Positions 5,941-38,129 of a stretch of DNA of 64,000 bases are shown here, piece after piece. A program made the position numbers and the translations under genes. The notes under the pieces are model-generated. The model did not search any database. It saw only the letters and a list, made by a program, of their open reading frames with translations, and was not told the DNA's origin. Source of the stretch: an uncultured cyanobacterium (GTDB lineage Bacteria; Cyanobacteriota; Cyanobacteriia; Cyanobacteriales; CAWUOF01); the NCBI GenBank assembly GCA_963744145.1, contig CAVUSO010000001.1:5984001-6048000 (forward strand), in the 5' to 3' direction. Each line of letters opens with the position of its first letter. The first letter of the stretch is position 1.

Positions 5941-5941
5941 A

Positions 5942-10668: not shown

Positions 10669-10692
10669 CCCTTTAGGGCTGGGGTGGCTTCA

Positions 10693-10975: not shown

Positions 10976-11007
10976 CTTAATGTTTAAACTGTCCTAGAAC
11001 CGACCGA

Positions 11008-11343
11008 CTAGAAGCGGCTAGTGCTTGGTTTGTGGACAACAAAACTGAGAATTTGGCACTGTTTTATATTGTCAAAACCGACCACACGAACGAAATGATT
11101 ATTGTATTCAGAACGACAAGCTTGAACTTCACTGAGAACTTCTTGAGTAGTTCTGGCATTGAACAAAGGTAATTTCCACATTGTCCAATACAATTCCTCG
11201 GGTTTAGAATATTCATTGAACTCGATCGCTGGAATATATCCCTTATCAATGATGTACTGAATTTGCTTGGCAATTTGAGCGTCAGTCAAAGGGGGTAAAT
11301 AGGAGAAGGTTTCGTAACGACGCTCTTTCGGTAGAGTTTTCAT
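11008..11343 (-). CDS. rbcS: RuBisCO small subunit
   Basis: [29 protein letters not shown]. Confidence 0.98.
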
Positions 11344-16796: not shown

Positions 16797-17423
16797 ATGA
16801 AAATTGCAATCATTTCTGATATTCATGGAAATTGGTCTGGGTTGAGTACGGTGTTAGATGATATTAAATTACGTCAAATCGAGCAAATTATTTGTTTAGG
16901 TGATGTAGTTGATGGGGGAGATGAAAATGATACAGTTGTGGATTGGTTGAAAGCAAATAATATCTCTACTGTCCAAGGAAATCACGATCAGAGTTATGAT
17001 TGTCGTCTGTCACCAGAGAATAGAGATTGGTTAAGTCATCTTCCTCGAATAATTGTGAAAAATGATGTTTGCTTTACTCATATTTCTCCAAGAGTTAAGC
17101 AAACAAAAGTTACTAATAATATCGAAGCTTGGAATATATTTGATGAGACTGATTACCGATTATGTTTTATTGGACATATTCATTTTCCAGCTCTATTTGG
17201 AGCTGAAAATGAAGAATTTGGAGAATCCCGTTCCTACGAAGTTGATCAAGGTTATTACCATCTAAATTCAGCCGATCGCTATATCATTTCCTTTGGAGCG
17301 ATCGGCTATCCTCGTGGAGGTGGAAAATTTATTCGCTACGGGATTTTTGATTCTAATCAGAACAGTGTCGAATTTATTAAATTACAGGGAACACTTTTGC
17401 CTTATGGCTTATGTTCTTATTGA
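16797..17423 (+). CDS. Metallophosphoesterase (calcineurin-like)
   Basis: SDIHGN, LGDVVD, GNHD, GHIH motifs. Confidence 0.9.
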   Translation: MKIAIISDIHGNWSGLSTVLDDIKLRQIEQIICLGDVVDGGDENDTVVDWLKANNISTVQGNHDQSYDCRLSPENRDWLSHLPRIIVKNDVCFTHISPRVKQTKVTNNIEAWNIFDETDYRLCFIGHIHFPALFGAENEEFGESRSYEVDQGYYHLNSADRYIISFGAIGYPRGGGKFIRYGIFDSNQNSVEFIKLQGTLLPYGLCSY

Positions 17424-17442
17424 AAATATTAATTCTGGTAAA

Positions 17443-18603
17443 TTAGTATTCTTGCTCCCAATGATCAGAAAACCCATACTCTTCCAGCTTGCTATTGCGT
17501 CGAATATCACAAGTTGCACAGTGGAAAGAGCCACCAAAGCTATAAAAGTGTCGGAAATCAACCGGAATAACCTGAAATCCTAACTTTTGCAAAAGCTTCT
17601 GAGTTGCTTCTTCCTGTCTTTCGACAATAATCCGTTCTGGATCTAAACTGAGAATATTCATGCTCACCCACTTACTCGCGATCGGAAGGTGCCAATAGTC
17701 TGGAGTAGCTGGAGGTGCTGTCTCAATCAAATCCCAACCAGCTTTCTTAAACAGTTCACTATGTTCAGGAGGACGGATCGGATTAATCAAAGCTAATCCC
17801 GGTTTAAGTGGTACTAAGGAAGCGTCTATGTGCATCGGGTTGAAATCTTTGAACTTGATGATATGTACTCGGTACTGTTTACCTAAGTGCTGTCTCAACC
17901 AGGTGATCCCCATCATATTAGTGACATGACTACGCTGGACAAAAATATCACGCCCAAAACGGACCAGATCAGCCGCATCAAAACAGGGTTCAAACTCAGT
18001 AGTTACATACTTACCTTTGCTCACTAATAATTCTTGCTCTTCTGGAGACATGGCGGCAAACTCAAAATCGTAGAGTTCGTCAGACATCAAAGGTTTCGGT
18101 GCAGTTGTCCATCTAGCTCCTGTTAAAAGATACTCCTTCATTAAAGAACGGTAAGCTCGGTATTCAAAAAATCGCGATCGCCATGCCATTGGTGCTTCAA
18201 TAATTTCATTTCCAATCACAATTAACAGATCGCGGGGCATAGCTGCGTACATTCCTGTAGCAGCAAAATCTGGAGTTTGATAAGTTTGAGAAAAGTCGAT
18301 TAGAGCTGGTCGTCGAACCGTAACTCCTTCTTCTGCTAAGATATGGCAAAACTCATCTAATTCCCGTGACGCTGCTTTTACCAGTTCTTCAGGAAAAGGA
18401 CGCCCACCTTGCTTTTGAAAAAACTCCCAGTATTTAGAAGGGGCATCTACCTTAACATTGGCTTCAAAATGAGGTATAGTAGCGCCTTCAACGTGACCAA
18501 CAATTACTTCTTGGAGAGTATCCCATTCGTTATAACTGTTGACGATCGGCAGTTTCTGGGTGAAACCTGTTACTTTAATTTCGGCAGAATAATTTGTTGG
18601 CAA
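17443..18603 (-). CDS. Amidinotransferase (glycine amidinotransferase / CyrA-like family)
   Basis: NSYNEWDTLQEVIVG, MPRD, RSRFFEYRAYR, FDAAD, MHID, GGSFHCATCD (catalytic Asp/His/Cys). Confidence 0.92.
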   Translation of the reverse strand: MPTNYSAEIKVTGFTQKLPIVNSYNEWDTLQEVIVGHVEGATIPHFEANVKVDAPSKYWEFFQKQGGRPFPEELVKAASRELDEFCHILAEEGVTVRRPALIDFSQTYQTPDFAATGMYAAMPRDLLIVIGNEIIEAPMAWRSRFFEYRAYRSLMKEYLLTGARWTTAPKPLMSDELYDFEFAAMSPEEQELLVSKGKYVTTEFEPCFDAADLVRFGRDIFVQRSHVTNMMGITWLRQHLGKQYRVHIIKFKDFNPMHIDASLVPLKPGLALINPIRPPEHSELFKKAGWDLIETAPPATPDYWHLPIASKWVSMNILSLDPERIIVERQEEATQKLLQKLGFQVIPVDFRHFYSFGGSFHCATCDIRRNSKLEEYGFSDHWEQEY

Positions 18604-18881
18604 ATTAATATTCCCGACAAATCCATTATTAGTAGTTATACAATACTCCGGACACTTTGCTGAGAGAAAATGGTTTATAGGTATAATTGACCAACCAATG
18701 ATTTTTGGCTAATAGTCAAAAATCAGACTTGAGCCACTGAGATCACCAAAAAAATATCGATCGTGAGAGAATAAACCCATGTAAATTCGACCCGACCGAT
18801 AATCATGAATTTTCTAGAAAACATCTTAACTCGACTCGCCGGGATTAGTAAAGCCCAAACCAAATTTTTCTGTAGGGCAAA

Positions 18882-18926
18882 CTTCGACTACGCGAGCAGG
18901 TAAACGAGCGGGTAAACTCAGGGTAA
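18882..18926. repeat. Small dispersed repeat CTTCGACTACG|CTCAGGGTAA interrupted by two 12-nt units
   Basis: CTTCGACTACG[CGAGCAGGTAAA][CGAGCGGGTAAA]CTCAGGGTAA; related to 59067..59114. Confidence 0.6.
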
Positions 18927-19019
18927 TCGTTTCAGCAATTATTTACTTGCCGAAACGCTCCCATCTCCTACATTTAACTGAACTGTATTGATCTATATTA
19001 TCTATAAAACTATCTTTGT

Positions 19020-20354
19020 CTAATTAGGGTTTACTCCTGATGCGCTATCAACAGCCATTGTTCTCCGCTCAATCATTTCTAATAACAAGTATCTGCTTAG
19101 ATATGATTTAATCTTAGGTTGGATAACCAGCTCTAGAAAACTTGATAATGATATTGTGATCATAATCCAAATTAATAAACCTAGTAAAAAACTCAAACCT
19201 GTTCCCTGCCAAGGCAAGTATTTATTCATTAGGATCGCGATCGGCATATGTAATAGATAGAAAGCATAAGAGATCCGACCCATAAAAGTCATTTTTTTTA
19301 AGCTGTTAACTGATGTATCATATTTAACCAATATAATTGCAAGTATAGTGGCCAAAGATGCTACTACCAATTGTGGACTTTGAAAAACATATCCCTTCCA
19401 AATTATCCAAACCAGGTAAAAGATAGGCAGCAAGAAACAGAGTAAACGCCAATAAATAAAACCATAAAAATAGCGACCTGTGATTTCACAGATTATTAAT
19501 ATACAGATTGGTAGAATTGTGAGGTCAGCCAGACTGACCATACCAGAAAAAACTGGATAGTTTAAAATCAATTTACATGTGAAAAAATGATTGGTAGCAT
19601 GAAATAATAAAATATAGCTAATCAGAGGAAAAAAGGATTTTTTCTGACTAGAAGGTGGTACTTTCCATGATAATAATAATCCACTCAACCAAAAAATCCA
19701 TCCGGACGCATAACTAGAAATAAATTGTGGAAATGACGGCAGAAACCAGCCAATAACACTGATGAGAAGAGTACCTAAAAATAAATCTAAGATTTTAGGT
19801 CGCAACCACCAGACTAAAATAAAGACAAAGTAATATAGAATTTCGTAATTTAAACTCCATACAGCTACATTACTTGCTAAAGGAGGTAGGGAAAAAGAAA
19901 AGTATTTATCAAAATTTTGTAAGAAAAATAAATTTCCTAAAACTAGGTTTAATTTTTCATTCGGTTTAGCTAATACTGCCAAACAAATAGCAATGAAATA
20001 AATTGGTAAAATTCTCATGGCACGGCGTAATATATAATTATGAACCTGCTGAATTGAGAACTCTTTTGTGGTCGTTAAGCCAATGACATAGCCGGAGAGA
20101 ACAAAGAATAGTAAAACCGCACTATGTGCTGCTGGTAAGTAGCCAAAATAAATATTGGGATGGTAGGTAGGGTCTAAAAAATTTTTGAGAAATAAAACAT
20201 GAAATAATGCCACTGATAATGCAGCAAGTCCTCTAATACCCTCTAAGTTAAAGTCATAGCTTGAATTTTTTTCTAAGGAGCAATCACTTCTATTATTAGG
20301 TTCTATTTTTGCATTAATTTTCAGATTTTGCAACCAAGTTTTAAACGTTTTCAT
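19020..20354 (-). CDS. Acyltransferase family 3 (membrane O-acyltransferase)
   Basis: LEGIRGLAALSVALFH, VLLFFVLSGYVI, WSLNYEILYY, GRISYAFYLLH; start uncertain (ATG 20354, or 20390 per ORF track). Confidence 0.88.
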   Translation of the reverse strand: MKTFKTWLQNLKINAKIEPNNRSDCSLEKNSSYDFNLEGIRGLAALSVALFHVLFLKNFLDPTYHPNIYFGYLPAAHSAVLLFFVLSGYVIGLTTTKEFSIQQVHNYILRRAMRILPIYFIAICLAVLAKPNEKLNLVLGNLFFLQNFDKYFSFSLPPLASNVAVWSLNYEILYYFVFILVWWLRPKILDLFLGTLLISVIGWFLPSFPQFISSYASGWIFWLSGLLLSWKVPPSSQKKSFFPLISYILLFHATNHFFTCKLILNYPVFSGMVSLADLTILPICILIICEITGRYFYGFIYWRLLCFLLPIFYLVWIIWKGYVFQSPQLVVASLATILAIILVKYDTSVNSLKKMTFMGRISYAFYLLHMPIAILMNKYLPWQGTGLSFLLGLLIWIMITISLSSFLELVIQPKIKSYLSRYLLLEMIERRTMAVDSASGVNPN

Positions 20355-20579
20355 GAATTGAGCCAGGATTGAGAACAATGTATTTATCAATGGGGCGATC
20401 GCCTAAGATTCAGCAAAAACTATAACAGCATCAAGTACCAAGGCATAAACTGCAACATTGCGAGGATAATCAAGGTGTGATATGATGTCAAGGGCTGAGT
20501 CCTAATTCATCAAATCTAGTCTCAGCTTTTTTTTCGGCTTTGTCTAGTCTGTGAAACTAATTTTAAATAAGGAGGTAGG

Positions 20580-21497
20580 ATGAATAACCTAAATATAGAA
20601 AATATTTATGCCTCGCGCGTCAATTCAAAATTTACCATTATCGATCGCCAAGAGCCAATTATCTACAGCAATAATCTACCACCTGCATCGTTAAAGCCGG
20701 AACAAGTCCAGTTCTACTCTGACAACGGATTCCTTTTGATGGAAGGTTTTTTTAGTTCTCAAGAGGTAGAGATTTTCCGTCGAGAAGTGGAGCAACTAGC
20801 TACTTGTGAGGAAATCAAAAAGGCAGGAATAAGATTTACTGAAGGTGAAAGCGATATCCTGCGGTCTATCTATTGGATCCACGAACTTAGTCACCTATTC
20901 AAGCAGTTATCCCTAGATAAACGTATCCTTGATATTGTCTACTATTTTCTCAATGATCGGGTGTATATTCATCAGTCACGTATCAATTTCAAGCCAGCTT
21001 TTTCAGGTGGAAATTTCTACTGGCATTCGGATTTTGAAACCTGGCATGTCGAGGATGGAATGCCAAAAATGCGTGCAGTGAGTGCGATGATTACACTGAC
21101 CGAAAATACAGAACTTAATGCTCCATTAATGGTAATTCCCGGTTCTCACAAAAAGTACATCAGCTGTGTGGGAGCCACACCAGCAGAATACTATAAAGAG
21201 TCGTTGAAGTCGATGAAACGAGAAGATTATGGTGTTCCCGACCAAGCTAGTATCACACAACTGGCTGAAGAAAATGGTATTGTAGCCATAAAAGCAGCCG
21301 CAGGTTCCCTCATCTTTTTCGATTGCAACATTCTACATGGGTCAAATAACAACATCTCCCCCTATCCGCGTACTAATCTTTTCTTTATCTATAATAGTCT
21401 GGAGAACGCGTTGCAAAAACCATTTGGGGGACTCAAACCAAGACCTGAATTTCTCGCCACAAGAGAAAACATTAAACCTCTAAATAATTTAACTTGA
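20580..21497 (+). CDS. Ectoine-hydroxylase-like Fe(II)/2-oxoglutarate dioxygenase (PhyH superfamily)
   Basis: Full EctD signature FYWHSDFETWHVEDGMP and HGSNNNISPYPR; strong SD AAGGAGG. Confidence 0.88.
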   Translation: MNNLNIENIYASRVNSKFTIIDRQEPIIYSNNLPPASLKPEQVQFYSDNGFLLMEGFFSSQEVEIFRREVEQLATCEEIKKAGIRFTEGESDILRSIYWIHELSHLFKQLSLDKRILDIVYYFLNDRVYIHQSRINFKPAFSGGNFYWHSDFETWHVEDGMPKMRAVSAMITLTENTELNAPLMVIPGSHKKYISCVGATPAEYYKESLKSMKREDYGVPDQASITQLAEENGIVAIKAAAGSLIFFDCNILHGSNNNISPYPRTNLFFIYNSLENALQKPFGGLKPRPEFLATRENIKPLNNLT

Positions 21498-21541
21498 TGA
21501 TATCCTTGGAGCCATAACAATTTACTTGTCAAAATCTCGCA

Positions 21542-21592
21542 TAATGGTTAAGCTTTGATCCATTGTATAAGCTAACCAAAACTTAACCATTA
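21542..21592. repeat. Intergenic inverted repeat (possible stem-loop inside the cluster transcript)
   Basis: TAATGGTTAAGCTTTG / CAAAACTTAACCATTA, 15 of 16 complementary. Confidence 0.5.
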
Positions 21593-21800
21593 AGCTAGTA
21601 TTCAAAAAACTTCGGTGACGCGAATGTTCAATTTGACAGATATTTTTGTAGGGGCGTATTGCTATACGCTCATACTTGATCGTTTACTGATTCAATCAAT
21701 GCTCTTTTTCTGAGAGGTTTGAGGATAAATCTGTCAAAACCAACTTGATCAGCATGGAAAAAAGCCACAATTAATTTTTTATTAAAAAAGGAGGGTAATT

Positions 21801-22820
21801 GTGATCTTAGCTCAAGCAGAAACTGTGGGAATTTCCGCAATTGGTTACTATATTCCTGAAAAAAGAATGACTTGTGAAGATATTGCCAAGTTAGCCAATA
21901 TACCTGTTTCTATGATAATCGAAGAGGTGGGGGTAGAAAAAAAACCAATTGCTGCTGAAAATGAGCATCCCAGTGATATGGGGGTCAAAGCAGCACAGGA
22001 TGCGATCAAAAAAGCGGGAATTAAACCAGAAGAAATCGATCTAATTGCCTATTGTGGTGCAGGAGACTATGATTATAGACATTGGTCACCCTCTGCTAAA
22101 ATTCAGAATGAAATTGGTGCCAAAAATGCTGTCCATGCTTTTGAAATCAGAAATGGTTGCCAAAGTGGGATATTAGGTATTTATATTTGTCAGAATCTAT
22201 TACTAGCAGATCCTGAAATAAATTGCGCTCTAGTCATTTGTAGTGATAAATTTTCCCATAACATGATTGATTATTCTGATCTAGAATTTTTAGATCAGTT
22301 TCGCTGTGCTGATGGGGCTATAGCAGTTATCCTAAAAAAAGGAGAAGGAAATAATAGAATTCTTGGTTACTCTGCGATCGTTCAGGGAGAATATGCTGAT
22401 GGACAGTGTATCCAGTTAGGAGGAACTAAGTTTAATTGGAAAGATTACAACAACAAAAGTGGTTACCTAAAACAACTGGTCAAAACAGATGAAATAAAAA
22501 CTGGGATAATTTTTTTACTAAATTACATTAAGGTAATTCAAAAAGTTCTTGAGAAAAGTAAATATACAAAAGCAGATATTGATTGGTTATTTACTAATCA
22601 AATTTCTGTCAATTTATCTCAGCAAATAATAAGTGCGATGGGATTAAAGATTGAACAAACAATGTTGTCTATGAGAGAATACGGTCATTTAGGAGCAGGA
22701 GATCCCTTGTTTGGCTTGGTAAAAATGATCGAGGTTAATCAAATAAAACCAGGAAATTTGGTGGTATTAGCTAGTAGTGGTAATAGAGTATCCTGGGGAG
22801 CAATGACAATTAAATTTTAA
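21801..22820 (+). CDS. KAS-III (FabH)-like condensing / acyl-transfer enzyme
   Basis: GISAIGYYIP, NGCQSG catalytic Cys, DGAIAV, GNRVSWGAM; GTG start after SD AGGAG. Confidence 0.88.
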   Translation: MILAQAETVGISAIGYYIPEKRMTCEDIAKLANIPVSMIIEEVGVEKKPIAAENEHPSDMGVKAAQDAIKKAGIKPEEIDLIAYCGAGDYDYRHWSPSAKIQNEIGAKNAVHAFEIRNGCQSGILGIYICQNLLLADPEINCALVICSDKFSHNMIDYSDLEFLDQFRCADGAIAVILKKGEGNNRILGYSAIVQGEYADGQCIQLGGTKFNWKDYNNKSGYLKQLVKTDEIKTGIIFLLNYIKVIQKVLEKSKYTKADIDWLFTNQISVNLSQQIISAMGLKIEQTMLSMREYGHLGAGDPLFGLVKMIEVNQIKPGNLVVLASSGNRVSWGAMTIKF

Positions 22821-22857
22821 TTTTTGACTTGTAATAGATTGATTCTAGAGGAACAAT

Positions 22858-23106
22858 ATGACAGAAATAAAAGCCCAAATTCGCCAAATAGTGATTGAAA
22901 TACTGCCCCAAGTTAAAGATGCAGAAAATCTAGATGAACTAGATATTTTTAGTCAAGGATTAACTTCGATCAATGCGATGAGCTTGGTGGTAAAATTGCA
23001 AAATTTATTTGGGATTCAATTTGATGCCAATGAAATTAATATAGAAGACTTTAAAACTATAGTCAATATGGTAAATTTGGTTGAGCAAAAACAAAAGATT
23101 AGGTAA
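22858..23106 (+). CDS. Acyl / peptidyl carrier protein
   Basis: 82 aa acidic protein; GLTSINAMSL phosphopantetheine-site-like motif; between KAS-III and AMP-ligase. Confidence 0.85.
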   Translation: MTEIKAQIRQIVIEILPQVKDAENLDELDIFSQGLTSINAMSLVVKLQNLFGIQFDANEINIEDFKTIVNMVNLVEQKQKIR

Positions 23107-23151
23107 TTACAAATAAATCGAGGAAAAAAATTAGATATTGGGGAAATTATT

Positions 23152-24678
23152 GTGCTGAATCAAATGTTAAAAAAGACCGTAGCTCGGTTTCCCGAAAAAA
23201 TTGCGTTGGTTTGTGGGGAGTTAAGGATAACTTATGGAGAGCTTGACAATCAAGTTGAAAGATTTAGTCAGGGTTTGACTGAAATAGGAGTTAAGCACTC
23301 TGATTGTGTGGCTTTAATTCTACCCAACTGCCCAGAGTTCGTGATTAGTTTCTATGGGATTGCCAGAATAGGTGCGATCGCCCTGTTCCTTAATCCCTCC
23401 TGCAAAGAAAATGAACTCGAAAATTACATCTGCGATAGTAACCCGATCGCGATCATTACTGATATTACTAGAGCTGCCATTTGCAGTCATTTAATTTCTC
23501 AACTCGATCGCCAAGTTCATTTAATTGTAGTAGGGGGAGAGCATCCATTAGGTCATACCTTTAATGATCTGCTTGTCCGGGAAGTAGAAATATTTGAGCA
23601 ACCGCAGTTCCATGAAGGTGATGTTCTCTACCAATACTCATCAGGATCGACTGGAAAACCCAAAAGAGTCTGTCGTACTCAAAAAAACATCTTCCATGAA
23701 GCAAATAACTGTTTCCTGACCCAAAAAATTACTGAATTTGACAATATTTTTTGCCTTGTACCCTTTTATCATGCTTACGGATTTGGACAATGCCTACTAG
23801 CAGCCACTTATTCAGGAGCAACTTTGGTAATTTTAGAACCATGTTGGCAAAATGGCAAGATCATAGAGCAACCATTTATTTTTAGACAAGCTCGGGTATT
23901 GGAGGTGATCGCGCAAGAGAAAATTACAATTTTGCCTGCTATTCCTTATATCTATAGTGTTTTAGCAGCAATCCCTGCAAGTACACCAACAGACTTATCG
24001 ACCTTAAGATTATGTATTTCAGCTGGTAATTTTCTGCCCAAAGATATTTTCGATCGATTCTATACCCGATTTGGAATTACGATCCGACAGCTTTATGGCT
24101 GTACCGAAGCTGGTGCTGTTGCCATTAATATGCAGAATGGAGCTAATATTAAATACGATTCCATTGGTTTGCCGATGAAAAACGTAGAAATCAAGATCAT
24201 GGATGAAGCCGAACAGGAGTTACCAACAGGAACAGTAGGAGAAATAGCGCTCAAAAGTCAAACCCTGACCCTTAGTTATGATCATCATCCCGATGCTAGC
24301 CAAGCAGCATTCAAAAATGGCTACTTTTTGACAGGCGATTTAGGTAAAAAAGATGAAGATGGTTATCTCTACATTACAGGTCGCAAAAAGTTTTTAATTG
24401 ATACAGGAGGATATAAAGTCAATCCCTTAGAAGTAGAAACTGTTTTAATAGAGCATCCCAAAATTAGTGAAGTGGTTGTGGTCGGAGTTGCTACTCCTCA
24501 TACAGGACAATTGGTAAAAGCGGTTATTGTTGCTAAAGGAGATTGCCGAGAACAAGATATTTTTGACTACTGTCAGGATAAGTTAGCAGAGTTCAAAGTT
24601 CCTAAGATAGTTGAATTTCGTCAGGAAATTCCTAAGAGCCCGATGGGAAAGATTTTGAGAGAAAAGCTGTCTAGTTAA
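23152..24678 (+). CDS. Class I adenylate-forming enzyme (acyl-AMP / CoA ligase)
   Basis: YSSGSTGKPK, YGCTE, TGDLG, GRKK, PKSPMGKILR. Confidence 0.92.
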   Translation: MLNQMLKKTVARFPEKIALVCGELRITYGELDNQVERFSQGLTEIGVKHSDCVALILPNCPEFVISFYGIARIGAIALFLNPSCKENELENYICDSNPIAIITDITRAAICSHLISQLDRQVHLIVVGGEHPLGHTFNDLLVREVEIFEQPQFHEGDVLYQYSSGSTGKPKRVCRTQKNIFHEANNCFLTQKITEFDNIFCLVPFYHAYGFGQCLLAATYSGATLVILEPCWQNGKIIEQPFIFRQARVLEVIAQEKITILPAIPYIYSVLAAIPASTPTDLSTLRLCISAGNFLPKDIFDRFYTRFGITIRQLYGCTEAGAVAINMQNGANIKYDSIGLPMKNVEIKIMDEAEQELPTGTVGEIALKSQTLTLSYDHHPDASQAAFKNGYFLTGDLGKKDEDGYLYITGRKKFLIDTGGYKVNPLEVETVLIEHPKISEVVVVGVATPHTGQLVKAVIVAKGDCREQDIFDYCQDKLAEFKVPKIVEFRQEIPKSPMGKILREKLSS

Positions 24679-24680
24679 AT

Positions 24681-26231
24681 CTAACGAACAAGTCCTTCCA
24701 GCAACTCAATCACCGCTGCAACTGCTGTATACATTGCACCCTGAATCGAAGCATGATTAATAGCCAAATGTTCTCCAGCAAAAAAAACACGAGGCTTTTC
24801 TAGAGGATAAGACTGACATAGCAGACTTTGATAGCGCTCTTGTTCTCCAGGTGCAAAAAAAGCATAAGCTCCTGAACCTACTTGAGTTTTTTCATCCCAA
24901 ATACAATGAATCACGTCATCAACATAACGATCAATTTGGGAATGTAGTTGTTTAACCTCAGCTAAAGTCAAGTCAGTTCGTTTACCCTCTTCAAGAGATA
25001 GAAAATGCCGTACATTACTATCCCAACGGTAAGCAGCAGTAAAAGCTGTTGGTTGATGGGAAATTTCCGGATCTTGCGCTACCCAGCACAACTTTTCTGT
25101 CTGGGAGTCTGCTAAAATAGCATTATCCGAAGGATACCAGCATTTTTCCATTGGCAAATCCGTAAAACTGCCCCCACCATAAATATGATCGTAAAGTTCC
25201 CAAGGACGAGCAGTACAGTGAAAGATTGTTTTAGCTGCATTGCTGTAACCCAGACCACAAATAGCCTGTATTTTATTTGCTGGGAGAGGAGGATAGAACT
25301 CTATTCTTGCTAGAGCAGTAGCGGGAACTGTACAAATCACATAGTCAAATTCTTGCTCTTTCTTGCTACCCAAATTATCCCAACCAACTCGAACTCCTTG
25401 GTCGGTCATCTGCAATAGATTTACCTTAGCATTACGCTCAATTTTTCCTGGTAAACGTTCTACAAAAGCTTTTACCAAGGTTTCCATACCACCAACAAGC
25501 TGATATTGTTCAGCCTGATACCAAGCAAAGAAATCAATTAATCCACTCCAGACAGAAATTTCGTCATAATAAATCATTCCCGTCGCACGACCTACCAGTT
25601 CAAAAGCATCAGGAGAAAGGCGATCGCGAAAATATTGGCTAAAAGTTAGCCTATTATATTCCTTTAATTTACCACTGGTAAAAGTTGGCGAAAATATTTC
25701 CCACTTTTCTCGATCAGAAAGACAATCTAATAATTCCTTTAAAATATTTTCATACAAAACTCGAGGATCAATAGATTCGGCTGGGTCGAGATGGTAAACT
25801 GAAAAAAGTTTTTGAAACTGATTAAGACGAGCTTTTTGACCGCGCAAATAATAAAAAGCATTGGGATTGTAATTGACAAAACTACCCTTGGATAAATTAA
25901 ATTTTTCCACATAATGTAGCACACAGCTATGATTGATCGGAATACGCATCGCTCCGAGTTCCCCATAGCTTCCATCAGAAAAATAATGGGTATAAATGCG
26001 CCCTCCCAAACGATGAGAAGCTTCTAAAATGGTTACCTCATAACTCAGTTGACTTAATTCATAAGCCGCAGTCAGCCCAGCAATACCACCCCCAATAATA
26101 CCAACTTGCAAGCGATCGCCACCAGGGTCTTTTGCCTTGAGAGAATTTGGGTGTTGATAGAGTTCAGCAAAGGAAAAAGGGTGATCGGGCTTTTGGGTAT
26201 GACGATAGATATGAAAATTTGATGAGGACAT
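24681..26231 (-). CDS. Flavin amine / L-amino-acid oxidase family
   Basis: GGGIAGL dinucleotide fold, LEASHRLGGR, ELGAMRIP, FAGEH; ATG 26231 chosen as start (uncertain). Confidence 0.88.
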   Translation of the reverse strand: MSSSNFHIYRHTQKPDHPFSFAELYQHPNSLKAKDPGGDRLQVGIIGGGIAGLTAAYELSQLSYEVTILEASHRLGGRIYTHYFSDGSYGELGAMRIPINHSCVLHYVEKFNLSKGSFVNYNPNAFYYLRGQKARLNQFQKLFSVYHLDPAESIDPRVLYENILKELLDCLSDREKWEIFSPTFTSGKLKEYNRLTFSQYFRDRLSPDAFELVGRATGMIYYDEISVWSGLIDFFAWYQAEQYQLVGGMETLVKAFVERLPGKIERNAKVNLLQMTDQGVRVGWDNLGSKKEQEFDYVICTVPATALARIEFYPPLPANKIQAICGLGYSNAAKTIFHCTARPWELYDHIYGGGSFTDLPMEKCWYPSDNAILADSQTEKLCWVAQDPEISHQPTAFTAAYRWDSNVRHFLSLEEGKRTDLTLAEVKQLHSQIDRYVDDVIHCIWDEKTQVGSGAYAFFAPGEQERYQSLLCQSYPLEKPRVFFAGEHLAINHASIQGAMYTAVAAVIELLEGLVR

Positions 26232-26239
26232 TGAGAAAA

Positions 26240-27196
26240 ATGAAAATCCTTTTATGTACGAAGCGTGATTCTTTTCTAGTAGATTTACTAGCATCCCAAT
26301 TATCAGATTGTCAAATTATAGCTTGCTCTACTGACACCGCGATCGAGCATTTAGATGGTGTGGATGTAATCATTCCATACTTTGCTACTATTGATGCCTT
26401 AATGATTAATTCTGGAAAATTCGGGTTAATTCAGCAGTTTGGTGTAGGTTTAGATGCTGTAAATATTGAAGCTGCTACCCATGCAGGGGTATGGGTAGCA
26501 AGAGTACCGGGAAAGATTTCTGGCAATGCCGATTCCGTTGCTGAATACGCCATCATGCTAATGTTAATGCTATCACGACCAATAACCATAGTGAGGCCAA
26601 GATTAAACTCTAATAAATGGAGTCAACAAAAAAGCATTGCCTTATTTAAAAAAACAGCCTGCATTGTGGGACTCGGTGATATTGGTACAGCACTAGCAGT
26701 ACGTCTAAAAGCTTTTGGAATGCGTCTAGTTGCTGTTCGACAACACTCCGAACGCGGAGCATCTCCAGAAACAGGAATAGAACGAGTTTATGGAGCTGAT
26801 GCTCTGACCGAAGCTTTATCAGATGCTGACTATGTAATCTTGTGTGCTTACTATCAAAAAAATAATCATCATTTGATTAATAGTGTCACCCTGGCAGCCA
26901 TGAAACCAGGAGCATTTCTGATCAACGTGGCTCGTGGTGGTTTAGTAGATACAGATGCTTTGTCAGCGGCACTAGCAAGGGGTCATTTGGCAGGTGCAGG
27001 TCTTGATCTAGTTGACTCTCCCACAGATGCTCTTTTCCAACACAACGTCATTGTTACTCCTCATATTGCTGGTGTTACTGACTTGGCTGACCAAGGAATA
27101 ACGGCTGTGGTAGTTGATAACATTAAACGCTATATCCGAGGAGAACAGCCATTGTATGCAGTTAACGCACCTGATCATCTGCGACGCTTGTTATGA
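26240..27196 (+). CDS. D-isomer-specific 2-hydroxyacid dehydrogenase
   Basis: GVGLDAVN, SVAEY, GLGDIG, NVARGG, TPHIAG; start moved to MKILLCT. Confidence 0.9.
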   Translation: MKILLCTKRDSFLVDLLASQLSDCQIIACSTDTAIEHLDGVDVIIPYFATIDALMINSGKFGLIQQFGVGLDAVNIEAATHAGVWVARVPGKISGNADSVAEYAIMLMLMLSRPITIVRPRLNSNKWSQQKSIALFKKTACIVGLGDIGTALAVRLKAFGMRLVAVRQHSERGASPETGIERVYGADALTEALSDADYVILCAYYQKNNHHLINSVTLAAMKPGAFLINVARGGLVDTDALSAALARGHLAGAGLDLVDSPTDALFQHNVIVTPHIAGVTDLADQGITAVVVDNIKRYIRGEQPLYAVNAPDHLRRLL

Positions 27197-27268
27197 TTAT
27201 TTAGCAAGGTTTTGGACTTGCTTGAGCTCGTCCCAGTTTCTTCCACCTTTTTTTTCAGAGCAATACCG

Positions 27269-28222
27269 ATGAACGATCTAGTAGACAAGTCTCAAAACTC
27301 CTGGCTTACCCTAACAACAATAAAAGCGATCGCTGCTTTAGCGATTACACAGCTAGCGATCGGTTCAGTGCCAGTTCTCATTAGATTATCAGAAGATGAA
27401 ATTAGCCCAAATGCGACTATTTTTAACCGACTACTGATTGGGACAGCCTTGTTAGCGCTGTGGAATGTTTTATTTAAGATCGGTCGTAAATTTTTAGGCA
27501 ATCAGCCCATAGAAGCAACCCAACAATCATACTCAAAGGAGGTAATATGGCTATTACTAGCACTAGGATTTTGTATTGCGGGCTATCAAATAGTTTGGGC
27601 TTGGTCTCTCACTCAGACCAGTATTGCTAATTCAGCATTGATGCACAGTTTACTTCCTTTGTTCACTGCTTCAATTGGTATCCTTTTCTTCAGTCAGCAA
27701 TTAGATCGCCCCTTAGCCCTGGGCACAACAATTGCGATCGCTGGAGCTTTCGGTGTCGCACTCAACGATCTGCAAATTGACCCTGACAAACTCCTAGGTG
27801 ATGCGATTGCGTTAATGTCAGCTTTACTAACTGCCTTATGTCTGTTAATTGCAGAACAACTGCAAAAAAAATTAAACACGACCACAATAGTGAGCTGGTC
27901 TTGTGCAATTGGAACTATATTAAATCTACCTCTTGTTATCCTAATTGGAGATGAAATCTTTCCTTCTTCTTGGAGTGGATGGAGCGAAGTAATTGGTTTA
28001 GCTTTAACCCTTGTAATCAGTCAAGGATTAGTCATCTATAGCTTAAAAAGATTATCGCCAAGTTTTGTTGCTGTAGCCTTTCTGTTCGATCCAGCTATTG
28101 CTGCTATCCTTGGCTGGACAATTTTTTCAGAAAGTTTAAATTCCTATAATCTCTTAGGTTTTATTATCGTGTTGTTAGGGATGTATATAACCACCTTAAG
28201 CAAATATGCACTTAAGGTTTAA
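27269..28222 (+). CDS. DMT / EamA-family transporter
   Basis: About 10 hydrophobic segments in two EamA-like halves; LLGDAIAL; start moved to ATG 27269. Confidence 0.88.
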   Translation: MNDLVDKSQNSWLTLTTIKAIAALAITQLAIGSVPVLIRLSEDEISPNATIFNRLLIGTALLALWNVLFKIGRKFLGNQPIEATQQSYSKEVIWLLLALGFCIAGYQIVWAWSLTQTSIANSALMHSLLPLFTASIGILFFSQQLDRPLALGTTIAIAGAFGVALNDLQIDPDKLLGDAIALMSALLTALCLLIAEQLQKKLNTTTIVSWSCAIGTILNLPLVILIGDEIFPSSWSGWSEVIGLALTLVISQGLVIYSLKRLSPSFVAVAFLFDPAIAAILGWTIFSESLNSYNLLGFIIVLLGMYITTLSKYALKV

Positions 28223-28268
28223 TCGCTTTCCCAATCCTCTTATTCAAGTAGAATTCCCTTGAGTATAC

Positions 28269-29333
28269 TCAAGGGTTGCCATCCATACAGCTAACATATT
28301 TCAAGACATATCCAATTACCAAATTTGTCGGATCGACTTGGAAATCAACAGATTCTTTTTTAATAATTTCAAATCCAGCGCTAGTAAAAATTTCAGTCCA
28401 TTTCTGATCAGTAGCTAGTTTTTGGTTGGTGAATGAATGGAGTAAGAAATAAGGGTTATAAAATCCTAGCCCTACTGGAGATTTCATCACTTCTTCATTA
28501 TCAATTGCATAATCAACCTCAATTACATGAAGATAGCTGTGGGGAAACTTTTTGCCAATATTGCGAATAAATTCAATCAAAATATCTTCTCCTGCTTGAC
28601 CATATATTTCTTGGAGAACAAACCAAAATAAAATAAAGTCAGGAATCTCATTCATTTCATAATCAAGAGCAGCACTATTCACTAAAATTATCCGATCTTG
28701 CATTTTCTTTTCGATCACCAAATTGAGTCCAGCTTGATATGCTCCCTCATCAGGCTCAATACCAATTGCTTTAATATTTGGATTTTGGTGACAAAATTCA
28801 CATAATCCCAAGGCACTACCACAACCATAATCAATGATCAAACTGGTGGTAGGTTTGATTTCCGCCATCATTTTTTTAGCCAAAGGAAAGACATCATTTT
28901 GAGAAATTTGGCAAGCACCAATTCCGACCCATTTACCATTTCTTGATACATAGTTTGTGCCATGTTTTAAAATATTAGAAATATTAGAAAATATCGGTGA
29001 ATAACCTCCGACCAACAGATGAAAAAATCCCTGATAGTAAATACTAATTTGGTCACCATAATGAGAAATACGAAAACTGATTTGGTCATTTTCTAAGGTA
29101 CTTTTCTCTAAAATTCCTTCTAGTGCTAGATATTCAAACAAGGCTCGCAATAGGTTAGGGTCAAATCCTTTTTCTTCTGCAATAGTCTTGATATCTAATC
29201 CATCTTTCAACATGGAAAAAATTCCTTCTTTGAGCAGATCGTAAATTACTTGACTAGCTACAAAACCTCTGAGATAGCCAAGAGATTTCTCTAAACCAGG
29301 AAGGAAATCATTACTAATTATCATCTTAGACAT
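28269..29333 (-). CDS. SAM-dependent methyltransferase resembling 2-ketoarginine C-methyltransferases (MrsA / ArgN type)
   Basis: IDYGCGS SAM motif; LLVGGY, GIGACQISQNDVFP, FVLQEI and GLGFYNPYFLLH match my recollection of that family (not searched). Confidence 0.72.
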   Translation of the reverse strand: MSKMIISNDFLPGLEKSLGYLRGFVASQVIYDLLKEGIFSMLKDGLDIKTIAEEKGFDPNLLRALFEYLALEGILEKSTLENDQISFRISHYGDQISIYYQGFFHLLVGGYSPIFSNISNILKHGTNYVSRNGKWVGIGACQISQNDVFPLAKKMMAEIKPTTSLIIDYGCGSALGLCEFCHQNPNIKAIGIEPDEGAYQAGLNLVIEKKMQDRIILVNSAALDYEMNEIPDFILFWFVLQEIYGQAGEDILIEFIRNIGKKFPHSYLHVIEVDYAIDNEEVMKSPVGLGFYNPYFLLHSFTNQKLATDQKWTEIFTSAGFEIIKKESVDFQVDPTNLVIGYVLKYVSCMDGNP

Positions 29334-29335: not shown

Positions 29336-30124
29336 TTATTTTTCCTTAGATTCAGGATATTGTCCGGTTCTAACTTCGAGCGCAAATTGGGCGATCGCTT
29401 GCTCAATTATTTCTCGTAAATTAGCATAAGCTTTAGCAAAGGGAGGTAGATGATCCGAAAACCCTAATAAATCGTGGGTAACTAGGATTTGACCATCGCA
29501 ATGGGGTCCAGCACCGATTCCGATCGTCGGGATCGTTAATTTTTGGGTAATTTCTAATCCTAATTCATCCGGAATATGTTCTAAAACGAGCGCAAAAGCA
29601 CCTGCTTGTTCTAAAGCGATCGCTTCGGTTAAAATTCGTTCTCCAGCTTCTTTAGTTTTTCCTTGTTGACGATAACCGAGTTTATGGACAGATTGGGGAG
29701 TTAATCCCAGATGTCCTAACACAGGTATCCCAACTTCTACTAGCTGATTGACCGTTTCGGCGATCGCGGGATATCCACCTTCTAATTTTACTGCTTGTGC
29801 GCCAGTTTCTTTTAATACTCGACCGGCGGAATGTTTAGCTTGTTCAATACTTTCTTGATAGGTTAAAAACGGTAAATCTACTACTAATAATGCCTGATTG
29901 ACTCCCCGTCGAACTGCTTTAGCATGGTGGAGCATCTCTTCGAGAGTTAAGGGTAAGGTAGTTTTCATCCCTAACGCTACCATCGCGAGAGAATCTCCAA
30001 CTAAAATCAAGTCAACACCTGCTCGATCTAATAATTGCGCGATCGCATAATCCCAAGCAGTTAGTGCTACAATCGAGCGTCCTTGCTGTTTCCATTGAAT
30101 AAGTTGCTGGGTGGTGATAGTCAT
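29336..30124 (-). CDS. panB: 3-methyl-2-oxobutanoate hydroxymethyltransferase
   Basis: [32 protein letters not shown]. Confidence 0.97.
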
Positions 30125-30308: not shown

Positions 30309-30725
30309 CTTTTCCAGAAATTTGGATTAATTGAATAATTGCTAAAAGTGGCCAACGAGCAGCCTGCCCGATTAGCTAAAAATAGCTTAACTACAGCTAA
30401 CTAAATTGGTTGAGTAGCCTAAAAACGTAGTAAAGCGGAGCTAAACAGCGTAATTAGTTCATTTTCCGAGACTCCTCTGTAGTCGCTTCCCTCAGCCAAT
30501 TGGATGCTAGATCCGACCAATGAGAGCGTAGTTCAGTAGGAATCTATTAGGCAGTCTACCCTAGCCTAGTACAATCAAAGTGGCGTGGTTAGCCGTTCTA
30601 GTTTGATTAGCACACCTTGAGTATTACTACTCTAGGCTTTGAAAAGCTTTTTCATTAGTCGGTCAACTTCCTACAAGCCAATAGAGAGCGAATCTTACTA
30701 TCTGCCGTCTGACCGAAAGGTAATT
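30283..30725 (-). ncRNA. Candidate structured non-coding RNA (~440 nt)
   Basis: No ORF of 60 aa or more; several helices including a GUAA-tetraloop hairpin; TAATAT -10-like box near 30740; terminator at the 3' end. Confidence 0.4.
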
Positions 30726-30784: not shown

Positions 30785-30988
30785 CTATCTGTTGATATGA
30801 CGAGAAACAAGTTTTTCACAATGAGCTTGTGTTTGGTGTAACAATTGCTCACGACTATCTGCTGTCTTAGTCAGTGTAGGAACCAAGTTGCGAGCTTGTA
30901 GAGCCATGTGAAGCTGTAAATGGGCCACATACTCACTAATATCTTCACGCAATGGACAAGATGGATATTGATTTGAACGGGACTTCAA
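30785..30988 (-). CDS. Small hypothetical protein (67 aa)
   Basis: TTG start behind a strong SD (AGGAAGGAG); helical protein-like sequence YVAHLQLHMALQARNL. Confidence 0.7.
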   Translation of the reverse strand: MKSRSNQYPSCPLREDISEYVAHLQLHMALQARNLVPTLTKTADSREQLLHQTQAHCEKLVSRHINR

Positions 30989-35048: not shown

Positions 35049-36446
35049 TCAAGAATTTGTCAATGGTAAGCAAACGGTAAATCGCGTTCTGCCAGGTTTC
35101 GACTCAAAGGTAATTGTGCCATGATGGCGATTCTCTACAATTCGCCTGGTGGTTTCTAGTCCTAGTCCAGATCCCTGACCAACAGGTTTAGTAGTAAAGA
35201 AAGGTTCAAAAATTCGGGTTTGAATTTCCGGAGGGATGCCACTGCCAGAGTCAATGATATCTACTCGAGCCAATTGACCGCAATGCTGAGTTGTAATTTC
35301 TAGCAACCCTTTTCCTGCCATAGCATCGATCGCATTATCAATTAAGTTTGTCCACACCTGGTTCAGTTCGCTGCCATAGGCAAATAACTTTGGTAACTGG
35401 AGATCGTAATGGCGTTGGATCTGGATACCATATTTAAGTTTGTGTGTCAATAACCTTAATGTATCTTCTAGTCCTTGATGTAGGTTCACCTCTTGTTGTA
35501 CGCCCTGATCCAAATAGGAGTAAGACTTCATAGCCTGCACTAAATCTGCAATCCGTTCGGCACCATGCAATCCATGTTTAATCATCGACATCACTTCAAA
35601 GGAGAGCGCTAGCCAGTGCAAACCCATTTCCCGCAATTCAGTGGGATCATCTCGCCATCGTTCCATCAGCTGATCTAAAGTGGCGATCGCTACGCCCCCT
35701 TCCGCTAAGGGTAGGGCTAGTTTCCATGCTTGTTCCACACCATAGTCTTCTAACCAGGTGAGTAATTCATCTTCCCGATCGCTTAAGGTCGCTGGATCGA
35801 GGCGATCGTTGAGAATAACATCATATCCCCGATCGCGCGTCTGTACCCATTGCTCTGTATGGGCTGCTTCAACTTGGCGTTGCCCATAAACCAGGTTGAT
35901 GCGCTGAAGTTCTTGATTAGCCGCAGGCATTTTTCGCAAAGCACGAACTAATGCCGCCGCAGGATTATTAAGTTCATGGGCTAGACCCGCAGCCAGGGTG
36001 CCTAGGGCAGCCATTTTCTCCCTACCACGAATAAATGATTCTAGTCGGCGTGTGCGATCTTGCATAATCCGAAAGACGATGCGCTCAAAATCTCGGCACT
36101 CATGTAGTAGAGTCAGAAAATCATCGCCGACAATTTCATAAAGTCTACAGTCCCTAATAGCCCGGAAAGTTACAAGCCAAGGCTCATCAGTAAGAACGGG
36201 AATTTCGCCAAAGAATGAGGGTGCTTCATGTTGTCCGATGGGAATGTCATTACCTCCACTGCGACGGGTAATACTCAGTTGACCTGCCATCAAGATCAGT
36301 ATGCCCCGGGGTGCATCACCTTCCTGGATGAGAATTTCTCCAGGACCCAGGGCGATCGCTTGAGAACGATCGCACAGCCACTCTAGTCGATGCAGTGGAA
36401 GTTGATTAAAGGGTTCCAGTTTGATTAAATCTTCTGTACAAAGCAT
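35049..36446 (-). CDS. cNMP-domain sensor histidine kinase
   Basis: N-terminal cNMP fold (FFGEIP); AHELNNP, NLIDNA, DSGSG, FFTTK, GSGLGL. Confidence 0.92.
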   Translation of the reverse strand: MLCTEDLIKLEPFNQLPLHRLEWLCDRSQAIALGPGEILIQEGDAPRGILILMAGQLSITRRSGGNDIPIGQHEAPSFFGEIPVLTDEPWLVTFRAIRDCRLYEIVGDDFLTLLHECRDFERIVFRIMQDRTRRLESFIRGREKMAALGTLAAGLAHELNNPAAALVRALRKMPAANQELQRINLVYGQRQVEAAHTEQWVQTRDRGYDVILNDRLDPATLSDREDELLTWLEDYGVEQAWKLALPLAEGGVAIATLDQLMERWRDDPTELREMGLHWLALSFEVMSMIKHGLHGAERIADLVQAMKSYSYLDQGVQQEVNLHQGLEDTLRLLTHKLKYGIQIQRHYDLQLPKLFAYGSELNQVWTNLIDNAIDAMAGKGLLEITTQHCGQLARVDIIDSGSGIPPEIQTRIFEPFFTTKPVGQGSGLGLETTRRIVENRHHGTITFESKPGRTRFTVCLPLTNS

Positions 36447-36464
36447 TCAGATCGTCTCCTGATG

Positions 36465-38129
36465 CTAACTTTTAGCCAGATAGCGATGGATAAGTTGCAC
36501 TGCGATCGCGCCTTCACCTACGCTAGATGCGACTCGTTTGATGGAGCCAGCACGCACATCTCCAGCAGCAAAAATTCCTGGAACACTGCTTTCTAGCAAG
36601 AAAGGAGGGCGATCGAGTTTCCAGCCTCGTAGAACTTTTCCAGTTTGCATCAAATCAGATCCTGTCAAGATAAACCCCTGAGCATCTCGTTCAACGATAC
36701 CCTCTAGCCAATCAGTTTTAGGAATGGCTCCAATAAAGATAAAAAGTGATTGAGCTGGGACGGTTTCAGTTGTGCCTAGTCTGCCATCTGCAATCACAAT
36801 TGCTTCCAAGTGCTGCTCTCCCTTTACCTCAACCACACTACAACAAGTGCAAACCTGGATGTTTTCAGTGGCAGCAATCTGGTCAATCAAATACTGGGAC
36901 ATATTAGCAGAAAGGGATTCACCTCGCACCAGCATGATGACTTTCCGGGCATATTTGGCAAAGTGCATCGCAGCTTGTCCAGCGGAGTTAGCCCCGCCAA
37001 CGAGATAGACATCTTCATTACGACAGGAGATCGCTTCGGTGATCGCCGCACCGTAATAGATACCTGCCCCTGTAAGTTTCTCAGCTCCAGGTATATTTAA
37101 CCAACGGTAGGAAACACCTGTGGCCACAAGTAGAGCATGGCAATTCAGTTCGTTGCCATCTGCAAATTGTAAAATTCGGTATGGATCTTTAAGCCTCATC
37201 CCGATGACGGTTTGAGGGGTCAAAATCTCTACTCCAAAACGTCTAGCCTGAGTGACTGCTCGTCTAGCTAAATCACTACCACTTAAGCCCACGGGAAACC
37301 CTAAATAGTTTTCAATGCGGGAACTAGAACCAGCTTGTCCTCCTGGTGCTTCGCGCTCAATTAAAACTGTGCTTAAGCCCTCAGAGGCACCATAGACAGC
37401 AGCAGCCAGTCCAGCTGGACCACCCCCGACAATCGCTAGGTCATAAAATGGTTGCTCTGCATGAGTTTTCAAGCCAATCTTTTCGGCGATCGCCATGTTA
37501 GATGGTTGAAGGAGACGGAAACCATCGGGAAATAAAACTAGGGGCAACTTTTGTTGATCGTCAGTTTCCACATCCTCCAGCAGTTTTCCGGCTTCTGGCT
37601 CCAATTCCAGATCTAACCACTCATAGGGAATTTGATTCCGTGCCAAAAAGTTTTTGATCTGATGGGAGGAGGGAGACCAGCGATGCCCTACTACCCGAAT
37701 CCCCTCAAAAGATGGACGGAAATTGGCTAACCAATCTTCCAGTAAGTCATCTAAAACTGGATAAAGCCGTTCTTCAGGTGGGTCCCAAGGTTTAAGCAGG
37801 TAGTAATCTAGTCGGGCACTATTGATCGACTGAATCGCTGTATCCGTATCAGCATAAGCAGTAAGTAACACCCGTTTTGCTAGGGGAAAAAGCTCTTTTG
37901 CTTGTTCAATGAACTCCACCCCACCCATCGAAGGCATCCGTTGATCGACCAGAAATAGGGCAACAGGTTCATTTCGCAATTTTAGTTTCTGCAATACATC
38001 CAAAGCGACAATACCAGACTCAGCTCTGACAATGCGAAAGCGATCGCCATATTGATACCGCAAATCCTGGGAGACCGCTTGCAAAACGTCTGGATCATCA
38101 TCAACTGTAAGGACGACAGGTTTAGCCAT
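36465..38129 (-). CDS. Response-regulator receiver fused to a thioredoxin-reductase-like FAD oxidoreductase
   Basis: VDDD..DQRMP..KPW receiver; GGGPAG, IENYLGFP, GGANSAG, GIFAAGD. Confidence 0.92.
   Translation of the reverse strand: MAKPVVLTVDDDPDVLQAVSQDLRYQYGDRFRIVRAESGIVALDVLQKLKLRNEPVALFLVDQRMPSMGGVEFIEQAKELFPLAKRVLLTAYADTDTAIQSINSARLDYYLLKPWDPPEERLYPVLDDLLEDWLANFRPSFEGIRVVGHRWSPSSHQIKNFLARNQIPYEWLDLELEPEAGKLLEDVETDDQQKLPLVLFPDGFRLLQPSNMAIAEKIGLKTHAEQPFYDLAIVGGGPAGLAAAVYGASEGLSTVLIEREAPGGQAGSSSRIENYLGFPVGLSGSDLARRAVTQARRFGVEILTPQTVIGMRLKDPYRILQFADGNELNCHALLVATGVSYRWLNIPGAEKLTGAGIYYGAAITEAISCRNEDVYLVGGANSAGQAAMHFAKYARKVIMLVRGESLSANMSQYLIDQIAATENIQVCTCCSVVEVKGEQHLEAIVIADGRLGTTETVPAQSLFIFIGAIPKTDWLEGIVERDAQGFILTGSDLMQTGKVLRGWKLDRPPFLLESSVPGIFAAGDVRAGSIKRVASSVGEGAIAVQLIHRYLAKS

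Follow-up and report, generated by a model that had tools for sequence, protein, structure and literature searches.

An amino-acid oxidase and a hydroxyacid dehydrogenase, possibly in place of the usual aminotransferase, near a MrsA-family methyltransferase in a cyanobacterial gene island

We analyzed a stretch of 64,000 nucleotides (nt), hereinafter the window, from an uncultured cyanobacterium of the Cyanobacteriales CAWUOF01 (contig CAVUSO010000001.1 of assembly GCA_963744145.1, positions 5,984,001-6,048,000), in which four intact genes between positions 24681 and 29333 encode a flavoenzyme of the L-amino-acid oxidase (LAAO) family, a D-2-hydroxyacid dehydrogenase, an EamA transporter and a methyltransferase of the MrsA family. 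The absence of an aminotransferase gene beside this methyltransferase is a real exception to the rule in its family. To judge from the encoded enzyme families, the product of the locus could plausibly be a methylated hydroxy acid not described before, which might carry a guanidino group.

In the 3-methylarginine pathways MrsA/MrsB (Pseudomonas syringae) and ArgM/ArgN (arginomycin), an aminotransferase both makes and re-aminates 2-ketoarginine. The window methyltransferase belongs to the same family of S-adenosylmethionine (SAM)-dependent C3-methyltransferases of amino-acid-derived 2-oxo acids. It matches TIGR04543, the NCBIfam model of 2-ketoarginine methyltransferase, with an E-value of 1.1e-92 and 310.7 bits, the second family reaching 25.6 bits. 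It also aligns over its full length (residues 12-345 against 16-348) with the solved 2-ketoarginine methyltransferase MrsA (8r4z, 225 bits), the next-best solved relative being MppJ (25 bits). By these comparisons the protein is a member of the MrsA family and not a generic O- or N-methyltransferase, a concern raised in the first-pass annotation of this DNA. Keto-acid C-methyltransferases of this kind are rare: a word-indexed search of 5.8 billion proteins (E 1e-10) returned 29 relatives, a scan of one genome per species located 46 loci encoding relatives, and no match was detected in 400 other genomes sampled from the phylum (E 1e-20).

At position 241, in the motif FVL[H/Q]E, the window protein and 13 of the 21 aligned relatives have Gln, whereas MrsA and the other 8 have His; His299 of the LLH motif is invariant among the aligned relatives. 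In SgvM, the metal ligands are H244 and H296, according to the available part of PMC10502145. By analogy with these ligands, the FVLHE and LLH histidines form a candidate metal site of the family. In each of the seven genome loci whose methyltransferase carries Gln (L007-L011, L014, L022), the partner aminotransferase is nevertheless retained.

A class I/II aminotransferase gene is located directly upstream of the methyltransferase gene, on the same strand, in 45 of the 46 loci of methyltransferase relatives (its identity was confirmed with Pfam for seven of the 46). In the window, by contrast, no aminotransferase is encoded among the 20 annotated open reading frames (ORFs) between 13.8 and 42.9 kb, and none of the 21 matches to PF00155 in the genome falls inside the window, the nearest being ~262 kb away. 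The genome also has no ortholog of the partner aminotransferase encoded beside the closest methyltransferase; the protein most similar to it shows 27% identity. The cluster accordingly lacks an aminotransferase, just as the first-pass annotation had maintained. The sole exception among the 46 loci, L006 from an archaeal metagenome-assembled genome (MAG), contains a gene for a DAO-family flavin adenine dinucleotide (FAD)-dependent oxidoreductase ~1 kb upstream of the methyltransferase gene, in divergent orientation. Both aminotransferase-less loci thus have a gene for a predicted flavin oxidoreductase of an amino-acid-oxidase-type family nearby; this coincidence is the strongest comparative support for the oxidase as the source of the 2-oxo acid and suggests such a role. 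In L006 (positions 7893-11047), the methyltransferase relative shows 53% identity, and a TrmB regulator is encoded along with the divergent DAO-family oxidase.

The presence of an LAAO-family flavoenzyme and a D-2-hydroxyacid dehydrogenase near the methyltransferase, as originally proposed, is borne out by the domains PF01593 in the former and PF02826 and PF00389 in the latter. Among solved structures, the best matches of the oxidase are vertebrate and ancestral L-amino-acid oxidases (146-159 bits), followed by oxidase/monooxygenases (72-82 bits), lysine oxidases (72 bits) and monoamine oxidases (~55 bits). By sequence, then, the enzyme (189 bits to PF01593) resembles L-amino-acid oxidases more than it does monoamine oxidases. 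It is encoded by a single gene in this genome and belongs to a family that is common in cyanobacteria (58-73% identity). The catalytic residues Arg232 and His275 of the dehydrogenase do not vary among 15 aligned sequences; where the Glu partner of the His would be expected, a loop is shortened relative to glyoxylate reductases, and the corresponding positions vary within the clade.

A metagenome scan with the single oxidase protein produced no loci, and a scan with an oxidase alignment produced 79, only one of which, L068, contains the dehydrogenase. Four short oxidase loci (L062, L066, L070 and L073) were screened by tblastn only. Close homologs of the oxidase (49-69% identity) are encoded in 13 loci, namely L051 (genome G298) and twelve metagenome loci. 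These loci are not all independent: L058 is almost the same as L059, and L067 is similar to L051. In L068, from a cyanobacterial metagenome, genes for an oxidase (66% identity) and a D-2-hydroxyacid dehydrogenase (66.7%) lie side by side, as in the window; unlike the window, this locus encodes neither a MrsA-family methyltransferase nor an amidinotransferase, and the neighboring genes encode a second FAD oxidoreductase, a class II aldolase, an Orn/Lys/Arg-decarboxylase-family enzyme and a TPMT-like methyltransferase. In L069 and L071, the oxidase gene (54% and 52%) is directly followed on the same strand by a gene for an Ldh_2-family reductase unrelated to the window dehydrogenase; L071 also contains an EamA gene. 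L051 encodes an oxidase 69% identical and an EamA protein 45% identical to those of the window. In addition, three dehydrogenase relatives share the size of their longest contig (3,018,501, 81,719 and 5,697 bases) with a listed oxidase relative. Because two unrelated reductase families recur beside the oxidase, this genomic context suggests that the oxidase product, a 2-oxo acid or a cyclic imine derived from it, is commonly reduced.

Two further observations pertain to genome G298. In the region 9838-13653 of L051, the gene for the 69% identical oxidase is followed by XisH and XisI genes, a 94-residue oxidase fragment and then the EamA gene, which looks like an insertion with partial duplication of the oxidase; the oxidase-XisH-XisI order is the same in L067. 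Shared TauD neighbors might have connected the amidinotransferase with the oxidase, but we rejected this link: the TauD protein encoded next to the amidinotransferase gene of G298 is unrelated to those encoded next to oxidase genes.

The four genes are part of a larger block. In the window, the gene for RegProp, a propeller-repeat protein (15718-16737), and panB lie on different strands, separated by 12.6 kb. In the relatives with loci L056 and L057, the same two genes are on one strand, 217-272 bp apart, and panB is located no more than 3 kb from RegProp or its preceding gene in at least 10 of 40 relatives. Because RegProp and panB are adjacent and on the same strand in relatives, the block 16797-29333 is lineage-specific, a 12.6-kb biosynthetic island with which panB was inverted. 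The G+C content of the island is the same as that of its surroundings, and a search for flanking repeats or att-like sites at its borders yielded only short, chance-level matches. The stop codon of panB is 2 bp from the methyltransferase start, and we considered PanB as an enzyme of the cluster; it was rejected because panB is present in one copy in the 7.7-Mb genome and is syntenic with RegProp in relatives that lack the island. The features of the block and its flank are as follows:

16797-17423, plus strand: metallophosphoesterase (PF12850 and PF00149), the first gene of the lineage-specific block between RegProp and panB
17443-18603, minus strand: AGAT-type L-arginine:amine amidinotransferase (481 bits to human AGAT 1jdw)
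18639-18871, no strand assigned: repeat resembling a miniature inverted-repeat transposable element (MITE), between the amidinotransferase and acyltransferase genes
19020-20390, minus strand: membrane acyltransferase, Acyl_transf_3 (PF01757, 56 bits)
20580-21497, plus strand: EctD-like Fe/2-oxoglutarate hydroxylase (TIGR02408, 345.3 bits)
21801-22820, plus strand: enzyme similar to β-ketoacyl-acyl carrier protein synthase III (KAS III), with an atypical Cys-Asn-His triad (PF08541 and PF08545)
22858-23106, plus strand: stand-alone acyl carrier protein (ACP; PF00550, 37 bits, E 4e-9)
23152-24678, plus strand: AMP-dependent acid-ACP (or acid-CoA) ligase (PF00501, 256 bits)
24681-26231 (longest ORF to 26294), minus strand: LAAO-family flavin amino-acid oxidase, 516 amino acids (PF01593 Amino_oxidase, 189 bits)
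26240-27196 (longest ORF from 26147), plus strand: D-isomer-specific 2-hydroxyacid dehydrogenase, 318 amino acids (PF02826, 146 bits; PF00389, 58.5 bits)
27212-28222, plus strand: EamA-family transporter (PF00892, 105 bits)
28269-29333, minus strand: MrsA-family 2-oxo acid C3-methyltransferase (TIGR04543, 310.7 bits)
29336-30124, minus strand: panB, housekeeping flank outside the cluster (TIGR00222, 361.7 bits)

The starts of the oxidase (26231, P0030) and of the dehydrogenase (26240, P0150) are the gene calls of the protein collection itself. These two start codons are divergent and only 8 bp apart, so that the promoter of each gene has to lie inside the other one. On the other side, the ligase and oxidase genes are convergent, with a gap of 2 bp after the ligase end. 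Scans of the window with Rfam and for tRNA genes produced no match.

The amidinotransferase provides a link to guanidino compounds. It aligns with human AGAT without gaps at an offset of 45 residues, and N255, M257, H258, D260 and C362 correspond to human N300, M302, H303, D305 and C407, as does D209 to D254; we take the Cys-His-Asp catalytic roles of these residues to be those of the human enzyme. The closest relative of the methyltransferase (77% identity) is encoded in a Fischerella MAG (L009), in the same operon as an amidinotransferase that is 77.6% identical to the one in the window. The gene order in this operon (5510-11151) is SugE-like SMR exporter, amidinotransferase, aminotransferase, MrsA-family methyltransferase, histidine-decarboxylase-like pyridoxal phosphate-dependent decarboxylase and daptide-type methyltransferase, and the reading frames overlap or lie close together. 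The operon probably makes an N-methylated β-methyl guanidino amine. Although L009 encodes the nearest relatives of both window proteins, it differs from the window in that it keeps the aminotransferase and adds the decarboxylase and a second methyltransferase, so that an amine product is expected, and in that it encodes no oxidase, dehydrogenase, KAS III, ACP or ligase.

Six island genes go beyond an oxidase, a methyltransferase and a dehydrogenase, namely those for the KAS III-like enzyme, the ACP, the acid-ACP ligase, the EctD-like hydroxylase, the Acyl_transf_3 protein and the metallophosphoesterase. The EctD-like hydroxylase scores above the TIGR02408 cut-off of 336.5 bits and matches EctD 4mhr with 301 bits; a search for ectoine synthase (PF06339) gave no match here, but it gave none in the control genomes either. 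Compared to FabH 4ryb, the KAS III-like protein retains Cys120, with the other two active-site residues swapped (Asn266 at the position of the FabH His, and His296 at the position of the FabH Asn). Neither KAS III nor the ligase is encoded in the 46 genome loci of methyltransferase relatives. The nearest context found for the ligase is L138 (2240-12865, genome G402), where a gene for a 56% identical ligase is followed by an ACP gene in a cluster that encodes DAHP synthase, chorismate pyruvate-lyase, ligase, ACP, a C-T-TE protein, a halogenase, an FAD monooxygenase and a cupin, and which we take to be similar to ambigol-type clusters. A homolog of the KAS III-like gene (50% identity) adjoins M24 peptidase and galactokinase genes in the relative G316.

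The window differs from MrsA/MrsB and ArgM/ArgN in having no aminotransferase, hence no dedicated re-amination, and in encoding instead a flavin oxidase and a D-2-hydroxyacid dehydrogenase, together with a linked amidinotransferase. We propose a route in which the AGAT-type amidinotransferase would provide a guanidino amino acid that is otherwise lacking in the cell, L-homoarginine made from L-lysine being the most economical guess. An arginine homolog of this kind would be a likelier substrate than arginine, because retention of the amidinotransferase would be pointless if arginine were used. The LAAO-family flavoenzyme would then irreversibly oxidize the α-amino group to give the 2-oxo acid, in place of a MrsB-type aminotransferase, and the MrsA-family enzyme would add a methyl group at C3. 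The methylated 2-oxo acid would be reduced rather than re-aminated, since no partner aminotransferase is present, and the D-2-hydroxyacid dehydrogenase would yield a D-2-hydroxy-3-methyl guanidino acid. This acid might be exported by EamA; more likely, the ligase would load it on the ACP and the KAS III-like enzyme would condense or esterify it, and the EctD-like and Acyl_transf_3 enzymes might hydroxylate and acylate the product. The family assignments, the lack of the aminotransferase, the island and the recurrence of gene pairs are established by the analysis, whereas we infer the substrate, the sequence of steps, the direction in which the dehydrogenase works and all steps past the hydroxy acid. 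As a whole, the route from amidinotransferase through oxidase and methyltransferase to dehydrogenase seems to us a credible possibility, although somewhat short of probable. The extended version, in which the oxidase replaces the aminotransferase, the KAS III-like enzyme builds the ACP-loaded hydroxy acid into a guanidino ester or ketide not described before, and an orphan EctD-like enzyme hydroxylates the product, appears unlikely to be correct in full. The oxidation-methylation-reduction pathway of the first-pass annotation gains from the missing partner aminotransferase, the recurring oxidase-reductase pair, the amidinotransferase link and the location of all genes in one block; where it fell short is in scope, because the island encodes further biosynthetic genes and the trio cannot be the whole pathway.

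Several observations weigh against the proposed route. The search of 28269-29333 against the 2-ketoarginine methyltransferase model, which had been suggested as a check, supports family membership, but the score of 310.7 bits is below the curated equivalog cut-off of TIGR04543 (425 bits), as are those of all 13 relatives that were scored (243-337 bits). Given these scores, the window protein and its relatives form a sister clade of the characterized MrsA, and homology does not settle the substrate. Neither the oxidase nor the dehydrogenase has a match at E 1e-8 in the 46 loci of methyltransferase relatives. The nearest atlas clusters that resemble the oxidase include RebO-type L-Trp oxidases and Trp 2-monooxygenase, and turnover of basic or guanidino amino acids by the window oxidase is a prediction. 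A reductase gene adjoins the oxidase gene in only three of the 13 close oxidase loci (L068, L069 and L071); others carry genes for TauD dioxygenases, cupins and sulfotransferases instead. The Glu partner of the catalytic His is not conserved in the dehydrogenase clade. McyI is reported to oxidize a hydroxy acid in microcystin biosynthesis, the opposite of the direction proposed for the window dehydrogenase, and McyI-like enzymes can run in the oxidizing direction. McyI (8wph, 9jnq) is among the PDB matches of the window dehydrogenase (95-103 bits) and resembles it as a family member from a cyanobacterial natural-product cluster, although the two are only distantly related. The four genes of the interval do not form one operon, because their strands alternate (oxidase minus, dehydrogenase and EamA plus, methyltransferase minus). 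Finally, because amidinotransferases ~76% identical to that of the window occur in unrelated contexts without the MrsA-family methyltransferase in two other cyanobacteria, the amidinotransferase-methyltransferase link is only moderate.

Alternatively, the island might be a mosaic of unconnected modules, in which the methyltransferase would cooperate with a housekeeping aminotransferase to make a β-methyl amino acid, similar to the antimetabolite 3-methylarginine of Pseudomonas syringae, and the oxidase, dehydrogenase and EamA would be an independent module for making or exporting a D-2-hydroxy acid derived from a different amino acid. Each half has a precedent, the oxidase-dehydrogenase pair without the methyltransferase in L068 and the methyltransferase-amidinotransferase pair without the oxidase in L009; 21 PF00155 matches are available elsewhere in the genome, and the methyltransferase gene is coupled to panB, on the strand opposite to the dehydrogenase and EamA genes. 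However, with a dedicated upstream aminotransferase kept in 45 of the 46 relatives, it would be unusual for this methyltransferase to depend on a general one, the second exception likewise has a flavin oxidase nearby, and all the genes arrived as a single block, so that we consider the mosaic explanation somewhat unlikely, if worth keeping in mind. At the other end of the scale, a chance neighborhood or gene decay, with no common pathway, could be read from the strand alternation and the MITE-like repeat inside the block, but every ORF is intact and matches its family over the full length, the catalytic residues are kept where tested, and gene pairs recur in other genomes, which makes this explanation highly improbable.

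Two other alternatives retain a common pathway and change its chemistry. The 2-oxo acid, methylated or not, might lose CO2 through hydrogen peroxide or a decarboxylating monooxygenase activity to become an acid of the guanidino-butyrate or guanidino-valerate type, which the ligase and ACP would supply to the KAS III-like enzyme, while the dehydrogenase would have its role elsewhere. 4-Guanidinobutyrate serves as a starter unit in actinomycete polyketides, the ligase gene ends 2 bp from the convergent oxidase gene, the nearest ligase context (L138) loads a small acid on a stand-alone ACP, and Trp 2-monooxygenase clusters are found among the oxidase look-alikes. Moreover, hydrogen peroxide converts 2-ketoarginine non-enzymatically into 4-guanidinobutyrate, as stated in the available part of PMC2242806. 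Nonetheless, we hold such a starter-unit route to be improbable, given that the best solved relatives of the oxidase are true oxidases (146-159 bits, versus 72-82 for the oxidase/monooxygenases), that there is no amidase among the island genes, and that the recurring oxidase-reductase pairing would be left unexplained. The other alternative drops the guanidino group: the trio would convert an aromatic or aliphatic amino acid to a β-methyl aryl- or alkyl-lactate, with the amidinotransferase modifying another amine. RebO-type L-Trp oxidase clusters among the nearest oxidase look-alikes fit this reading, as do the position of the methyltransferase clade below the 2-ketoarginine equivalog cut-off and the location of the closest ligase context beside chorismate pyruvate-lyase, whose expected product, 4-hydroxybenzoate, would be the loaded acid. 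MppJ, which methylates phenylpyruvate, is a distant relative of the window methyltransferase (25 bits), but by bit score the latter is about nine times nearer to the 2-ketoarginine methyltransferase; the gene of its nearest relative shares an operon with an amidinotransferase gene, and the oxidase-dehydrogenase cluster of L068 contains an Orn/Lys/Arg-decarboxylase-family gene. On balance, a non-guanidino substrate appears quite improbable.

The first step of the route we propose, oxidation of a basic amino acid to the 2-oxo acid, would not be foreign to the phylum. AoxA of Synechococcus elongatus, an L-amino-acid oxidase with specificity for basic amino acids, turns L-arginine into 2-ketoarginine (available part of PMC2242806); the likeness is one of known chemistry, and AoxA differs in being catabolic and outside any biosynthetic cluster. 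C3-methylation of 2-oxo acids is likewise already known, and keto-acid C-methyltransferases are wanted as biocatalysts for asymmetric alkylation, according to the available part of PMC10502145. Thus, the enzyme families are known, and the new element would be the exchange of the aminotransferase for an oxidase plus a reductase, with a hydroxy-acid product in a larger guanidino cluster. A review from 2025 on guanidine natural products of cyanobacteria (PMC12371840) mentions neither methylarginine nor keto acid nor oxidase, no cluster of this kind appears in the available part of a 2026 preprint on the amidinotransferases of cyanobacterial clusters, and literature searches on ketoarginine methyltransferase, MrsA crystal structures included, yielded nothing relevant. 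If the proposal is correct, replacement of the reversible aminotransferase by an oxidase would commit the C3-methyl 2-oxo acid to reduction over re-amination, an example of an end product altered by exchange of one partner enzyme. The three enzymes together would then provide a ready-made means of turning L-amino acids into β-methyl α-hydroxy acids, and the cyanobacterium would probably make a new guanidino metabolite.

Several minor features were observed in and around the island. The MITE-like element (~230 bp) has five other copies in the genome, with 88-92% identity. Upstream of panB, a 230-bp segment (30411-30640) has one further copy in the genome (88%) and is also present in the relative G418 (85%). 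The stretch 30798-30952 (~155 nt) is 72-81% conserved in many relatives, has no Rfam match and overlaps a 67-amino-acid ORF on the minus strand (30785-30988); it is probably a gene for a small, conserved protein. In the island-less genome G020 (L056, 2972-3907), a different D-2-hydroxyacid dehydrogenase (32% identity) is encoded directly downstream of panB. Farther along the window (35049-38129), a response-regulator receiver domain fused to a pyridine-nucleotide-disulphide oxidoreductase is encoded next to a cNMP-binding protein with a histidine-kinase-type ATPase domain.

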